64,000 bases of DNA, taken from the sequence record PV191315.1, one strand, 5' to 3'. The notes under the pieces are model-generated. The model searched no databases. It was not told the DNA's origin and saw nothing but the letters and a program-made list of their open reading frames with translations. This stretch comes from Escherichia phage vB_EcoM-P3322. A program made the translations under genes and the position numbers. Below are positions 1,772 through 45,068 of this stretch, in pieces (the stretch's first letter is position 1; the number at the start of each line of letters is the position of its first letter).

Positions 1772-2650
1772 ATGTTTGTAAAATCTTTTAAATCCGCTCT
1801 GCCTATGGTTGTTGGTGACAATGCTTCTGTAGCATCCCTTAACAGCATTACAGATATTCCTCTGGAATTTGTAACAGCAGAAGGCTCCCAGTCACACACT
1901 ATTGGTCTTGTTCGTTTCGAAGATGACTCTAAATTTGTAAAAGAGTTCTCAGATCTTGAACTGCTTAATGTAGGTCAATCTGTGAAGAAGGTAGATAAAA
2001 AGAAAGTTAAACGTATTCTGAATGAACGTCTAGAAGAAATGCGTCAGGACATGGAGAGCGAAGGTAAAGAGTTTTATGTCGATAAAGAAGTAGTCAAAGC
2101 AATGAAGGAAGATATTGAATTTGCACTATTGCCTGAAACAGAACCTGAAGATTTCTTTAACTATGTTGTCTTGGATAAAACTACGAATCTTCTTTATGTT
2201 CTTAATGGAAGTAAAAAGGTCGCAGAAGAGATTACTTCTTTCCTCCGTTCAGTTCTGGGGACTTTCCCTTCGGTAGGTTTTAGTGTGCATGAAGAAGCTA
2301 TTGTAAAAGGTTTTGGTGAATTGCTGGAGAATCACGAAGCAGATCGTATTACTCTCGGAAATTATATCAAAATGGAGGATAGCGAGGGCGTTGTTGTTTG
2401 GAGTAAAGAATCCCTATACGAGTCTAAAGCTGTCGAACTAAAAGAAGATGGTAAAGATGTTGTTGCAATCGGTCTTGAATATGACGGTGTTGTAGATTTT
2501 GTAGTGGATAAAGAGTTTAAACTTTCTAAACTACGTTTTCCGAAATATTTTGCAGACGAAGAAGGTAGTATTGAAGCTTCAGTCCTTCTGTGCTTCAATG
2601 AGATTCGAGGTCTGATGGAAGATTTAACCAAAGCAACAATCCTTAAATAA
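1772..2650 (+). CDS. rdgC: RdgC-like recombination-associated protein
   Basis: Strong RBS AGGAGG; ~290 aa; several blocks align by eye with E. coli RdgC (LLPE..D.T..L..V, KLS.LRF). Confidence 0.5.
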   Translation: MFVKSFKSALPMVVGDNASVASLNSITDIPLEFVTAEGSQSHTIGLVRFEDDSKFVKEFSDLELLNVGQSVKKVDKKKVKRILNERLEEMRQDMESEGKEFYVDKEVVKAMKEDIEFALLPETEPEDFFNYVVLDKTTNLLYVLNGSKKVAEEITSFLRSVLGTFPSVGFSVHEEAIVKGFGELLENHEADRITLGNYIKMEDSEGVVVWSKESLYESKAVELKEDGKDVVAIGLEYDGVVDFVVDKEFKLSKLRFPKYFADEEGSIEASVLLCFNEIRGLMEDLTKATILK

Positions 2651-2654
2651 GTTC

Positions 2655-2683
2655 TTGACTTGCGGGATTAGTTATGATATCAT
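2655..2683 (+). promoter_or_regulatory. sigma70-like promoter
   Basis: TTGACT-17nt-TATCAT upstream of 2723 gene. Confidence 0.45.
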
Positions 2684-2712
2684 GCCTACCTACTTAATGA
2701 GGTAGGCTTTTT
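2684..2712 (+). terminator. leader hairpin with T-run (terminator for rdgC-like gene or leader structure)
   Basis: gcctacc-tacttaatga-ggtaggc followed by ttttt. Confidence 0.45.
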
Positions 2713-2722
2713 AGGAGGCGTT

Positions 2723-2932
2723 ATGAAAAAGATTCTGACAGTCGTTCTTTTAGCTTTTAGTTTCACAGTAGCAGCAGGTCAAATTACTTTAATCTTGTCT
2801 GATTCTGAAGTTAATGGCAACACAAAATATTGCTACTATTCTAACGCTAACCAAGATGAAGTTATAGCAATCCCGAAAAGTCGTCAATGTCCGTATACTA
2901 AAACATTCTCAACAGAGGATGACGATGAATAA
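2723..2932 (+). CDS. small secreted protein (signal peptide)
   Basis: RBS AGGAGG; N-terminus MKKILTVVLLAFSFTVAAG is signal-peptide-like. Confidence 0.6.
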   Translation: MKKILTVVLLAFSFTVAAGQITLILSDSEVNGNTKYCYYSNANQDEVIAIPKSRQCPYTKTFSTEDDDE

Positions 2933-3373
2933 TTAGGGGGAAATATTAGCGGTTATATTTTAATTAAACCTGAAGATCTTCATTTATATGTCAACGAAGA
3001 AACAATAGCTGCAATTGATTATGATCAGATCGCTTTCCAAGCAGCGTCTGCATTAGAGAAAAGAACAATCATTGCGAAGCACATACCTTCAGGTGCTCAA
3101 AAGGAATTCAAAAATAAGACAGAGTTTTGGGGTAAAAGCAAGACTAAAATTGGAGGTTGGCTAGGAGATACAAATGCAGAAAGAGCCTCCAAAAACAAAC
3201 GTCCCTTCACAAAGGAAGAGTTCGAAATCATTGATAAGCAATACCCGCCAGAAGATATCGGACACACCTTCCAAGCAGCTAAAACAAAAGTCTTAGGTAT
3301 TCTAAAACATCTACGTTTAGAAAAATATTGCGGAGTTATTGGCGTAGGAAAAACTTTCAGACACGCCTTCAAA

Positions 3374-4063
3374 ATGCCTGTAGAATATAAATCTGAACGA
3401 TTAGATATCAAACCACTTCAGCTTTCAGAAACCAAAGATTATCTTGTGGAGTTCCACAATGGTGATGTTGTTACTGTAATAGAGGCTGATGATGAGTTAG
3501 AGAAGTATGGTTTCCAAGGTTATAAAGATTATAAAAGGACGGGTAAATTTTCTTATATTGTAGTGTCTATAGATAAAGATAGTTTACATACTCCTAGTAT
3601 CCTTTTTAATTTCTACAAAGAGGATGGAGTATTTAAAAATCCAGATATAATTCTTATTGACGAGTCTATTGGCGACATATGGATCGTAGATAAAGGTAAA
3701 AAGAAAGAAGTTAAAGGTTGGGGAAGTTATTGGTTAGCCTATCAGATGCTAATGGGAGATAAAACAGATAGTATCCGACCTTATCAAGATTTTGATATTA
3801 AGTTTGGAGATATTACTTGTTTTAATCTTCTTTCAGCTTGTAAAACTCAAGCAGAGCTTTTCCAAACAGTTAAAGATACTTACTACTCGTGGTTCCCAGA
3901 TGGTGTTAATTTTACTTCTTGGGATGGAGAAGAAGTCCATATGACAACAGATGAATGGATAGAAACAATTTTCCAGTTGGTATACATGAAACGCTGGGAT
4001 AACGACGATACAACATTTGAGAGTATGCTTCAGTCATACATCTCACAACAGGAGGCAGAGTGA
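3374..4063 (+). CDS. hypothetical protein (possible nuclease); reading frame is open upstream to 2933 without ATG/GTG/TTG
   Basis: Track ORF from first ATG; same frame is stop-free for 147 codons upstream (see findings). Confidence 0.55.
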   Translation: MPVEYKSERLDIKPLQLSETKDYLVEFHNGDVVTVIEADDELEKYGFQGYKDYKRTGKFSYIVVSIDKDSLHTPSILFNFYKEDGVFKNPDIILIDESIGDIWIVDKGKKKEVKGWGSYWLAYQMLMGDKTDSIRPYQDFDIKFGDITCFNLLSACKTQAELFQTVKDTYYSWFPDGVNFTSWDGEEVHMTTDEWIETIFQLVYMKRWDNDDTTFESMLQSYISQQEAE

Positions 4064-5019
4064 GCAGATTAACAGAAGAGCAGAAAGCAGATATCCTTAG
4101 TATGAGTGCAGAGGGTATGTCTTCTCGCAATATTGCAGCAATTGTTTTAGGTAGTCCAACAAGAAAAAGCACAGTAAATGATTTCCTTGCACGTTTCGGT
4201 GCAAGTAAACAAGAGCCAGTTAAAAAGAAACAACCAGTTATTAAAATTATTGATGTTGAAACTGCACCAGAGATTGCATATACTTTCCGTCGATTCAAAG
4301 CCTTCATTTCTCCAGACCAGGTAATTCGTAGGGGTTATTTGTTATCTTACTCTTCTGCTGATTTGTATACAGGTGAAGTGGAAGGTAAGAACTTGTCTTC
4401 TTATCCTCTTTTTGATATTGATCATACAGATGATTGGGAGCTTTGCCAAGATCTTTGGAACCTTCTGAACGAGGCAGATGTAGTTGTGGCACACAACGGG
4501 TATAAGTTTGACCGTGCATACATTAACCAACGATTTGCATATCACGATATGGCTCCTCCTTCTAATTATGTAGTTGTTGATACATTGAAGGCAGCTAAGA
4601 AACAATTTGCACTTCCTTCCAACTCCCTTAAAGAAATGGGAGCATATTTCGAAACAGAAAGTGAAAAACTGGATAACGAGGGGTTCCCTTTATGGAAAGC
4701 ATGTTGTGAAGGTGATCGTGATGCTTTTGAACGTATGCAGATTTACAATGATGGTGATGTTGTTTCACTCCGTGATTTGTATATGAAAATCCTTCCGTGG
4801 ATTCCGCAGCATCCTAACTTATCCGCTTATTACCCAGATGAGAAGGTCCGTTGTTCTCGTTGTGGAAGTGATCATGTTCACGTTGTTACTGGTAAGCAAT
4901 ACCACACTGCGGTAAGTTCTTTCGATATCATTCGTTGTGAATCTTGTGGAGGTTTGTCACGTAGTAGAGCAAACACCAGATCCAAGGATAAACGAGCAGC
5001 AACTATCATTGGAATCTAA
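4060..5019 (+). CDS. DEDD-type 3'-5' exonuclease with N-terminal HTH-like region and C-terminal Zn-ribbon
   Basis: GTG start overlapping upstream stop; motifs IDVET, HNGYKFD, YNDGD; CSRCGS...CESCGG. Confidence 0.6.
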   Translation: MSRLTEEQKADILSMSAEGMSSRNIAAIVLGSPTRKSTVNDFLARFGASKQEPVKKKQPVIKIIDVETAPEIAYTFRRFKAFISPDQVIRRGYLLSYSSADLYTGEVEGKNLSSYPLFDIDHTDDWELCQDLWNLLNEADVVVAHNGYKFDRAYINQRFAYHDMAPPSNYVVVDTLKAAKKQFALPSNSLKEMGAYFETESEKLDNEGFPLWKACCEGDRDAFERMQIYNDGDVVSLRDLYMKILPWIPQHPNLSAYYPDEKVRCSRCGSDHVHVVTGKQYHTAVSSFDIIRCESCGGLSRSRANTRSKDKRAATIIGI

Positions 5020-5025
5020 TAATCA

Positions 5026-5049
5026 GGGAGCTTATTGCTCCCTTTTTTA
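5026..5049 (+). terminator. rho-independent terminator
   Basis: gggagc-ttatt-gctccc then TTTTTT. Confidence 0.7.
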
Positions 5050-5078
5050 TTGACAAAAATTTTATATTAGTGTATACT
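5050..5078 (+). promoter_or_regulatory. strong sigma70-like promoter
   Basis: TTGACA-17nt-TATACT. Confidence 0.7.
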
Positions 5079-41703: not shown

Positions 41704-41925
41704 CTACTCCGCAAGAACATTCACTTCGTCAGAGAAAAATACGTAATCACAACCTTCCCAAACATCTTCTTCAAACCACTCCCATCCCTCAACTTTGGAC
41801 ATTTCTTCTATCGTAACAAAGAATGTTGTCATATCATCGCTAACAAGATGCGCTTCAACAACAAAAGGAATCTGAACATTCTCAAAACCAACATAACCCA
41901 ATACATCACAAACTCTAATTTTCAT
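41704..41925 (-). CDS. paralog family B member
   Basis: RBS AAAGGAG; shares W.W...........DYVFF motif with 45957..46187. Confidence 0.55.
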   Translation of the reverse strand: MKIRVCDVLGYVGFENVQIPFVVEAHLVSDDMTTFFVTIEEMSKVEGWEWFEEDVWEGCDYVFFSDEVNVLAE

Positions 41926-41926
41926 A

Positions 41927-42115
41927 TTATGCTCCTTTGTAGATTATGTTGGTGCGTTCACACTCTGCCACCAGCAAGCGATTAGCAATGTTGTCCATAG
42001 GAACATCAATCTCTACGCTCCAGGCATTGATATACACTTCTTCAATCTTTGCTCCAAGCATTTGTGCGATCAGAGCAACAGCCCCAGCATATTCAAGTTT
42101 AATCTCAATTACCAT
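41927..42115 (-). CDS. hypothetical protein
   Basis: ATG 42115 after GAGGTG. Confidence 0.5.
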   Translation of the reverse strand: MVIEIKLEYAGAVALIAQMLGAKIEEVYINAWSVEIDVPMDNIANRLLVAECERTNIIYKGA

Positions 42116-42129
42116 TTTGCACCTCAAGG

Positions 42130-42330
42130 TTATTTATCTTGCTTGTATCTTACAAGGCGATCACACTCCAGGTCAAGAAATTTCTCCGCATTTCGTTCGT
42201 GTTTGAGCACAATACATTGTTCTTTCCAGTCTGTAGCTCTTTGCTGCGCTGCTCCTGGGTCAAAATCCCAAAGCCATGCCGCGAAAAGAACAACCATAAC
42301 AATTACTAAGAAACTAAACACTATTGGCAT
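42130..42330 (-). CDS. small membrane protein
   Basis: ATG 42330 after AGGAGGA; TM segment IVFSFLVIVMVVLFAAWLW. Confidence 0.5.
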   Translation of the reverse strand: MPIVFSFLVIVMVVLFAAWLWDFDPGAAQQRATDWKEQCIVLKHERNAEKFLDLECDRLVRYKQDK

Positions 42331-42635
42331 TGCACATCCTCCTGTGTAGCATGGTCTTTTACCCATTTTATACGGGCAGCATTCAAATGCAATAGCCCGT
42401 TTCTTTGTGCAAAATCATATTTAAACCAGTCTCCGTCATCAAACGGGTATTCTTCAGACAATCCTGCCTCACGGAATTGCATTTGCATTTCATAATTTAG
42501 ATCATCATAACCTCCAGTCCAAAGGTAGAGGCAACTACATAATCCTTTATCATGCCAGAAAGGATTATTATCTGGAGCACCAGCTAATAGCCAATTATGA
42601 TATGCCTGATAAAATTCTTTAAGTTCCTCTGACAT
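42321..42635 (-). CDS. paralog family A member
   Basis: RBS AGGAGG; FYQAYHNWLLAGAPDN...GLCSCL...PF...HLNAARIKWVKDH. Confidence 0.65.
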   Translation of the reverse strand: MSEELKEFYQAYHNWLLAGAPDNNPFWHDKGLCSCLYLWTGGYDDLNYEMQMQFREAGLSEEYPFDDGDWFKYDFAQRNGLLHLNAARIKWVKDHATQEDVQCQ

Positions 42636-44162: not shown

Positions 44163-44600
44163 TTATAACAGATCTAATGCTTTCAACTCTTCTTTCAATG
44201 ATTCAGGCAGGTCACATTCAATGTCAATCAGAGATAACAAGTGACCAACAATGCCTTCCAGATGTTGATACTCACTATAACTTATAAATTCAGAATTGTA
44301 AACAGAAACATCCTTAGTTTCTTTCACAACTTCCCCCGCAGACACGCACATAAAAAAGTTACGCTCTCCGCGAGCTAACAATATCTCCCAACTCCTGAAC
44401 GGATACTGTCCAGCTTCAATAATATCTCCACTGTCCAGTAAAGTCAATGAGCAAACAGACCCTGATTCACTAACATCTTCGACGCGGAAACAAGACCCTT
44501 CAATCAAAGCTGCCATTTTGAAATTTTCATCAGAGATCATAGAGAAAGCTTCACATGCAGCTTTACTTTTGAAACAATAAACAGCATTAACTTTAAACAT
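44163..44600 (-). CDS. hypothetical protein
   Basis: RBS AAAGGGGAA. Confidence 0.6.
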   Translation of the reverse strand: MFKVNAVYCFKSKAACEAFSMISDENFKMAALIEGSCFRVEDVSESGSVCSLTLLDSGDIIEAGQYPFRSWEILLARGERNFFMCVSAGEVVKETKDVSVYNSEFISYSEYQHLEGIVGHLLSLIDIECDLPESLKEELKALDLL

Positions 44601-44612
44601 AACATTCCCCTT

Positions 44613-45068
44613 TTAAACAAAAGATACGCCGATGGTAGCAACAACCAAACGTTTATAAACTTCAACCTCTTCTGTAGGATTAGCCATTTTATGCTCTGCT
44701 GCTTCTTTCAAAGCTTCTTCATAACTTTCAAATCCAGAAATACAGGTGTCATCAGTCATTACAACATACCACTCTTCTTTTGTTGTATCAACAGGTTCTT
44801 CTTGGGGTTTTCCACGACCACCGCGAATACCACCGTCAACAAAATAATCTATATGAGCAGAATTGATTATGTAACGATCCCCATCACTAGCAGTGATAAT
44901 ACCGTCTCTCCCTATCACAACAATTGACAAGATATTACCATTTGCATCAGTGCTCAACACCTCGAAAAAATTCTCTCCAATGATAGCAGCAATACTGTTA
45001 TCAAAGGTAGAATATAGTCGCATATAATCCTCATCCTGGAAACGGTAGACATGACCTTCTTTAAACAT
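44613..45068 (-). CDS. hypothetical protein
   Basis: ATG 45068 after GAAGGAG. Confidence 0.55.
   Translation of the reverse strand: MFKEGHVYRFQDEDYMRLYSTFDNSIAAIIGENFFEVLSTDANGNILSIVVIGRDGIITASDGDRYIINSAHIDYFVDGGIRGGRGKPQEEPVDTTKEEWYVVMTDDTCISGFESYEEALKEAAEHKMANPTEEVEVYKRLVVATIGVSFV

Follow-up and report, generated by a model that had tools for sequence, protein, structure and literature searches.

The stretch of 64,000 nucleotides (nt) of Escherichia phage vB_EcoM-P3322 considered here (sequence record PV191315.1, one strand, 5' to 3'; hereafter the window) carries at 2945..4063 the gene of a predicted 5'-3' exonuclease of the FEN (flap endonuclease) family, whose translation very probably starts at the non-canonical codon ATT 2945. 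Region 2600-4200 of the window is 95-99.3% identical to 64 Phapecoctavirus genomes (phAPEC8, ESCO13 and others), and the window is a phAPEC8/ESCO13-like Phapecoctavirus genome of the subfamily Stephanstirmvirinae. The genes and features on which the argument depends are as follows:

2723..2932, plus strand: gene of a 69-amino-acid (aa) signal-peptide protein, PHROG 4641 (function unknown), beginning MKKILTVVLLAFSFTVAAGQ
2935..2940, plus strand: Shine-Dalgarno (SD) sequence AGGGGG of the nuclease gene, with GG[AG]GG kept at this position in all relatives
2945..2947, plus strand: proposed non-canonical start codon ATT, in frame, 4 nt after AGGGGG
2945..4063, plus strand: nuclease coding sequence (CDS), 372 aa, predicted FEN-type 5'-3' exonuclease / flap endonuclease, PHROG 107
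3017..3025, plus strand: codons of D25-Y26-D27 in the strand AIDYDQ, with D25 invariant and D27 at least 90% conserved among 45 homologues
3174..3296, plus strand: 40-aa open reading frame (ORF) in another frame, a 'hypothetical protein' in phAPEC8, vB_Ec-G1, ETEC-TG and others
3374..3376, plus strand: ATG codon of Met144, internal, the start of the 229-aa product in most annotations including that of the type phage phAPEC8
4060..5019, plus strand: RNase_H_2 gene / 'DNA polymerase exonuclease subunit', with a GTG start and AGGAGG-caga (4 nt) upstream

The signal-peptide gene is preceded by an SD AGGAGG at 2713-2718 with the 4-nt spacer cgtt before ATG 2723, and its stop codon TAA 2930-2932 lies 12 nt upstream of ATT 2945. 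An earlier note, made from the letters of the window and a list of its ORFs, had taken its product for a signal-peptide protein, in agreement with the SignalP annotation of the phi92 orthologue. The same note had described the frame of 3374..4063 as open for 147 further codons upstream, back to this TAA, with no canonical start, and had put the chance of such a stop-free run at the order of 1e-5. Reading of the sequence agrees: the frame 2933..4063 holds 376 sense codons from after TAA 2930-2932 to TGA 4061-4063, and its 147-codon leader contains no ATG, GTG or TTG, with ATG 3374 as the first in-frame canonical start. At window composition (38.9% GC), the probability of 147 codons free of stops is 5.6e-5, and that of 147 codons free of both stops and canonical starts is 2e-8. 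When stop-to-stop frames of at least 120-150 codons were compared in all six frames of the window, this leader was by far the longest that lacks a start, the runner-up having 75 codons in a seemingly antisense frame. Other long start-less frames (44466-44927, 41897-42349 and others) were considered as genes and set aside, as they look antisense.

Three independent lines, from close relatives, distant relatives and homology, indicate that 2945..3373 is coding sequence. Between the window and six close relatives, all 22 nucleotide differences within 2945-3373 fall on codon position 3 and cause no amino-acid change. Against relatives at 50-83% protein identity, the proportion of differences at nonsynonymous sites (pN) is 0.16-0.34 and that at synonymous sites (pS) is 0.66-0.91, the synonymous sites being saturated, which gives pN/pS of 0.2-0.4, and the pattern of the upstream part is like that of the downstream part or only moderately higher. 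The PHROG 107 family 'exonuclease' matches the 372-aa translation over residues 10-367 (E=1e-55) and the upstream 147 aa alone at E=5e-7, and in a tblastn search 900 phage records reach a coverage of 80% or more of the 372 aa, the N-terminus included. The suggestion of the earlier note that the true protein has about 375 aa is in line with the 372 aa predicted from ATT 2945, given this full-length homology, the purifying selection and the N-terminal catalytic Asp described below.

It is these data that bear on whether the true start might be ATG 3374, giving a protein of 229 aa and leaving 2933-3373 as a decayed relic or as non-coding sequence that is conserved. Gene callers choose ATG 3374, the first canonical start of the frame; however, it has no SD, Met144 is not conserved (Leu in L015 and L016, the L numbers being the handles of surveyed loci), and the upstream segment 2945-3373 is under purifying selection and carries the first strands of the fold along with the invariant D25. 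Homologues that have canonical starts begin at the equivalent of 2945, and when the homologues were aligned they did not all start at the equivalent of ATG 3374, the pattern named beforehand as speaking against a longer protein. A start at ATG 3374 is hence regarded as very improbable. The ORF at 3174..3296, which lies within the putative nuclease coding region and fills the apparent gap, is almost certainly a spurious call.

The AlphaFold2 model of the 372-aa protein is a single fold with a predicted local distance difference test score (pLDDT) of 96.2, and it shows the predicted PIN-like alpha/beta fold of a 5'-nuclease domain. In an alignment of 45 homologues, D25, E180, D182, D183, D210, K211, D212, D272 and D275 are invariant, and the metal-binding carboxylate clusters of the FEN family (N-terminal Asp, ExD, DxD and DxxD) are all present. 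In order and spacing the invariant residues match the FEN carboxylate clusters, whose counterparts in T5 are D26, E128/D130, D153/D155 and D201/D204; D25 corresponds to T5 D26 and T4 RNase H D19. By this alignment, D25-Y26-D27 would form the first catalytic-carboxylate strand of the FEN fold, located upstream of ATG 3374. A product initiated at ATG 3374 would lack D25 and the first core strands, and the N-terminal part is predicted to be needed for nuclease function. The 372-aa protein is thus predicted to be a FEN-family 5'-3' exonuclease / flap endonuclease, an assignment that comes from the modelled fold, the PHROG family and distant homologues bearing PF02739, rather than from a Pfam or PDB match of the window protein itself. 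Precomputed PF02739 (5'-3' exonuclease N-terminal domain) is found in 9 of 84 homologues (E 1e-19 to 1e-104), while a PDB search with the family profile gave only a marginal match to the Taq 5'-nuclease (E=0.09), in which the EADD and DKD motifs are aligned. In this weak profile alignment, the near-invariant Gly133 (3341-3343) is placed opposite the carboxylate Taq D67 / T5 D68, for which the near-invariant D27 might substitute. Compared with the FEN 5' nucleases (T5 D15, T4 RNase H, E. coli ExoIX, M. smegmatis FenA and the Pol I domain; PF02739), the window protein has an excess length of about 70-100 aa. Relative to T5 FEN and T4 RNase H, about 80 residues are inserted between core strands 1 and 2 (residues ~40-125, 3060-3320); the insertion is confidently modelled and made up of strands 39-55, helices 58-82, strand 93-100 and helix 105-123.

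No canonical start precedes the conserved D25 in the window, and a near-cognate codon stands at a functional distance from an SD. In the window the spacing from GG[AG]GG to a canonical start has its mode at 4 nt (23 of 42 real-sized ORFs) and its maximum at 9 nt, and about 84% of SD-associated starts are ATG. ATT 2945 is the only SD-spaced near-cognate codon of the window that opens a long frame with no adjoining canonical start. Three consecutive genes have the common layout AGG[AG]GG-N4-start, at ATG 2723, ATT 2945 and GTG 4060. This spacing also bears on initiation at the near-cognate codons ATT 2957 or ATT 2963, which are both in frame and both before D25; at 16 and 22 nt, their distances from the SD exceed the spacing range of this phage's genes, and in the relatives the codon at the 4-5-nt spacing is always near-cognate, which makes either of them an improbable start.

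Homologous loci were collected from GenBank phages, IMG/VR and metagenomes, and the sequence upstream of the conserved N-terminus was read in each. For relatives whose protein identity is about 50% or higher, 23 distinct start contexts were tabulated. One architecture recurs in 23/23: a signal-peptide ORF of 66-70 aa, its stop, GGAGG/GGGGG, 4-5 nt and a near-cognate codon. The aligned start codon is ATT in 9 contexts, ATC in 9, ATA in 4 and CTG in 1, with no canonical codon in any of them, distributed as follows:

ATT: Phapecoctavirus, phi92-like phages, a 64%-identity clade, L037 and L038
ATC: phiWec179, Klebsiella phage phi1_175008, L008, L013, L014 and L024-L028
ATA: L015, L029, L030 and L036
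CTG: L016

In most contexts there is no canonical start before the catalytic Asp. In L014, L025, L026 and L028 an in-frame TAA directly precedes the ATC, which fixes the 5' limit of the coding frame at that codon. Non-canonical initiation at ATT 2945, four nt after GGGGG, was among the options raised by the earlier note, and it gains from this recurrence of the same geometry in the 23 tabulated relatives, four of them with the in-frame stop directly before the codon. These four codons (AUU, AUC, AUA and CUG in the mRNA) are exactly the four best near-cognate starts measured in E. coli (bioRxiv 10.1101/063800). More distant orthologues, including those of mydoviruses, have a canonical start (TTG, GTG or ATG) at the homologous N-terminus, by which the N-terminus of the window protein is judged to be correctly placed:

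TTG: FV3/rV5-like phages, L039, L060, L061 and L063
GTG: L059
ATG: L017, L019, L020, L056, the Felix O1-like phage tootiki and Pseudomonas phage PAK_P5

The near-cognate trait was sought in the Felix O1-like and PAK_P5-like homologues and is not present there, these having ATG with normal SDs. The nuclease family appears from these start contexts to lean to weak starts generally and to be fully non-canonical in the Stephanstirmvirinae-like clade.

The constancy of the junction and the variability of its frame bear on three further explanations. Read-through of TAA 2930-2932, another option of the earlier note, would fuse the 69-aa signal-peptide protein to the nuclease; the two frames coincide in the window across a 12-nt gap, and the gap is a multiple of three in 15 of the 23 relatives. 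The frame relation is, however, 0 in 15, +1 in 2 and +2 in 6 of the 23 contexts, so that an in-frame relation is not conserved. The out-of-frame cases include phi92, phiWec179 and ETEC-TG, the last more than 99% identical, and a second in-frame stop is found in L014, L025, L026, L028, L032, L049, L015 and L016. TAA is moreover the strongest stop, and a secretion signal on a DNA nuclease would be functionally senseless. Read-through is consequently considered most unlikely, the varying frame relation and the second stops in several in-frame cases having removed the ground for that option. A 444-aa 'fusion' (P0005; L008 2024-3358, Logan contig SRR30397360_28145), the only such protein in the database, was examined as support for read-through and rejected: the TAG at its junction was translated as Gln by the gene caller under an alternative genetic code.

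A programmed frameshift of the prfB type, in which AGGGGG would act as an internal SD and shift upstream ribosomes into the nuclease frame, is suggested by the hexamer itself, AGGGGG being also the stimulator of the prfB frameshift. The upstream ORF nevertheless ends before the SD, no slippery CUU-U/stop motif follows it, and the gaps between stop and start vary (8, 9, 11, 12, 13, 14, 15, 16 and 18 nt), so that no single shift would work in all relatives. The predicted RNA fold of 2895-2995 has unremarkable stability (z=-1.28), and an Rfam search over 2400-3500 gave nothing above noise. Nothing thus points to a structured element for recoding or regulation, and such a frameshift is extremely improbable. 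Equally remote is an error of sequencing or assembly, or a gene recently turned pseudogene, with an ATG lost or an indel introduced near 2925-2950. The five G's at 2936-2940 form a homopolymer, which has six G's in ETEC-TG; the arrangement is, however, common to 64 independently sequenced phage genomes and to IMG/VR and metagenome contigs, on which the earlier suggestion of a sequence error fails, and a near-cognate codon occupies the same site in lineages down to about 50% identity. The additional G of ETEC-TG is upstream of the start and leaves the nuclease frame unaffected. In that phage (L002, OR786310.1), otherwise 99% identical, it shifts the upstream gene relative to the nuclease frame, both genes being intact.

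Several points weigh against a FEN-type nuclease initiated with low yield at ATT 2945. No proteomics or ribosome profiling was found in the literature for this phage group on the N-terminus of the nuclease. ATT, ATC and ATA all encode Ile, CTG encodes Leu, a conservative exchange, and the alternation of these codons alone would fit an internal codon as well; what speaks for a start is therefore the SD geometry, the in-frame stops and the absence of alternatives. In phiWec179 (TTG) and L037 (ATG) a canonical codon lies a few codons downstream, still before the catalytic Asp, and could serve as the start. Pfam searches with the 372-aa protein and with both of its halves gave nothing meaningful, with no PF02739 at E<=1, and a PDB sequence search with the single 372-aa protein gave no match. 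Any specific regulatory rationale, such as a low dosage of the nuclease as a selected property, is given much less confidence than the ATT start. That ATT 2945 is the codon actually used is what we infer from sequence comparison, with a high probability attached to it.

For initiation at ATT 2945, the strong SD AGGGGG would position the 30S subunit such that the initiator fMet-tRNA pairs with the near-cognate AUU 2945-2947, giving the predicted N-terminus Met-Ser-Gly-Tyr-Ile-Leu-Ile-Lys, (M)SGYILIKPEDLHLYVNEETIAAIDYDQIAFQAASALEK. Near-cognate initiation in E. coli reaches 1-2% of the AUG level in one construct and spans 0.02-3% across others (bioRxiv 10.1101/063800). The initiation yield at ATT 2945 would be about 1% of that of an AUG start, keeping a potentially harmful nuclease at low dosage. 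The output of the downstream gene 4060..5019 may fall too, because its GTG overlaps the nuclease stop codon (as GTGA); from this overlap, that gene is probably translationally coupled to the nuclease gene. Ribosomes that end the signal-peptide ORF 12 nt upstream probably contribute by re-initiating. Compatible with a start at ATT 2945 is that termination-reinitiation is even the main route, ribosomes ending at TAA 2930 being caught by the SD and restarting at ATT, which would tie nuclease output to the upstream gene. In 23/23 relatives the stop of the signal-peptide ORF is found 8-18 nt ahead of the near-cognate codon, often overlapping the SD (TAGGAGG), and in E. coli reporters with gaps of up to 20 nt about half of second-cistron initiation is reinitiation, including at an infC-like UAA-GGU-AUU junction (PMC3592434). 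Tight gene spacing is, however, normal in this phage and not specific to the nuclease gene, and a full-strength SD is conserved, as de novo initiation needs; reinitiation as the principal route is a possibility to be kept in mind, though a doubtful one.

A tRNA decoding AUU as initiator was also sought. The window contains no tRNAs, and none of the ten tRNAs of ESCO13, which include tRNA-Ile(GAU) and two tRNA(CAU), has an altered anticodon. One tRNA(CAU) of ESCO13 (NC_047770.1 59471-59549; L124 9471-9549) has an unpaired A1xC72 at the top of its acceptor stem, and its positions 2-6 (GCGGG) match those of the E. coli initiator tRNA; the three G-C pairs (GGG/CCC) typical of an initiator anticodon stem are absent from it. 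This tRNA is conserved with at least 94% identity in Phapecoctavirus and Justusliebigvirus and, from these features, may be a phage initiator-like tRNA. A phage tRNA(CAU) with such an initiator-like acceptor stem could conceivably take part in initiation at ATT.

The databases reflect the unusual start in different ways. The GenBank and RefSeq records of ESCO13 contain exactly this 372-aa ATT-start CDS, with a ribosome-binding site (RBS) feature, and these two ESCO13 entries are the only ones among 60 listed Phapecoctavirus records (64 matches in all) that cover the N-terminal 143 codons. The other listed records have a gap of about 440 nt (2960-3360 unannotated) or the spurious 40-aa ORF, with a 229-aa 'exonuclease' called, and in the phi92 record the gene is shortened, being annotated from an internal GTG and marked 'No RBS identified'. 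Most records are thus 143 codons too short because the relatives carry ATT, ATC, ATA or CTG at the start. The genome announcement of ESCO13 makes no mention of the ATT start; a literature search covering the phAPEC8 and ESCO13 papers, ATT starts in phage and Stephanstirmvirinae proteomics found this start codon not mentioned, and no paper was found on clade-wide ATT/ATC/ATA/CTG starts of this nuclease. At this locus, the records titled 'Campylobacter phage B15/A145', 'Acinetobacter phage vB_AbaM_ABPW7' and 'Klebsiella phage ZCKP1' show about 99% identity to phapecoctaviruses of E. coli or to phi92-like phages, and contamination or misassignment may lie behind their host labels.

Upstream of the signal-peptide gene, three further features complete the local order:

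1772-2650: RdgC-like gene, first in the local gene order
2655-2683, plus strand: candidate promoter-like site TTGACT-17-TATCAT with extended TG, from a consensus scan only
2684-2714, plus strand: 8-bp GC-rich hairpin and T-run, directly after the promoter-like site

The segment 2655..2714 between the RdgC-like and signal-peptide genes is the probable boundary and start of a three-gene unit 2723..5019. At the downstream end of this unit, a terminator-like hairpin (5025-5043) and a promoter-like site (5050-5078) are found.

A near-cognate start is a known class of mechanism, of which the nuclease is a well-replicated further case. infC (encoding initiation factor 3, IF3) and pcnB (poly(A) polymerase) are the two confirmed AUU-initiated chromosomal genes of E. 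coli (10.1101/063800; PMC3592434), and in both, as proposed for the nuclease, an SD-directed AUU limits translation of a dosage-sensitive protein; infC, like the nuclease gene, also begins a few nt after the stop of the preceding cistron (PMC3592434). Unlike these two, the nuclease gene belongs to a lytic phage, and its proposed start is non-canonical across a clade and drifts among AUU, AUC, AUA and CUG; and unlike in the case of IF3, no autoregulatory logic is evident. Two reports describe an ATT start of Enterococcus faecalis ebpA mis-annotated at a downstream ATG and a GTC start of Streptomyces sigR repressed by IF3 (PMC4447247, PMC5472188). In both cases, the rare start attenuates expression and a downstream canonical codon was annotated, as with the nuclease gene, whereas ebpA and sigR have reporter and mutational proof and concern other organisms and protein classes. 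A further comparison is the 'putative exodeoxyribonuclease' of rV5-like phages (Vequintavirinae), which is 37-42% identical along the whole protein and shares the N-terminus and the SD geometry; unlike the window gene, these orthologues have canonical though mostly weak starts (TTG, GTG, ATG), and hence gene callers find them.

The longer protein corrects the annotation of a core replication/repair gene, the 229-aa call being one without the catalytic Asp, in phages several of which are candidates for therapy. It also exposes a blind spot of gene callers, whose output for this gene comprises variants of 229 to 373 aa plus the 444-aa pseudo-fusion. The clade constitutes a natural, evolutionarily replicated allelic series for start-codon selection, IF3 fidelity and translational coupling, and the finding gains interest if canonical starts turn out to be avoided under selection. 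Retron Eco2 protects E. coli from Stephanstirmvirinae and Vequintavirinae, and in other phages its triggers are phage nucleases (PMC12916289); a link between Eco2 and the low-expression start of the nuclease is pure speculation. Tentatively, and at rather low probability, the non-canonical start might be actively maintained throughout the clade (Stephanstirmvirinae and uncultured relatives), wandering among AUU, AUC, AUA and CUG with a perfect SD at saturating divergence and never turning into AUG, GUG or UUG. Active maintenance would imply selection for initiation at about 1%, or initiation gated by IF3 or physiological state, and possible reasons for it would be the sparing of phage DNA, the avoidance of tripping nuclease-sensing host defences such as retrons, and timing as initiation fidelity changes in the course of infection.

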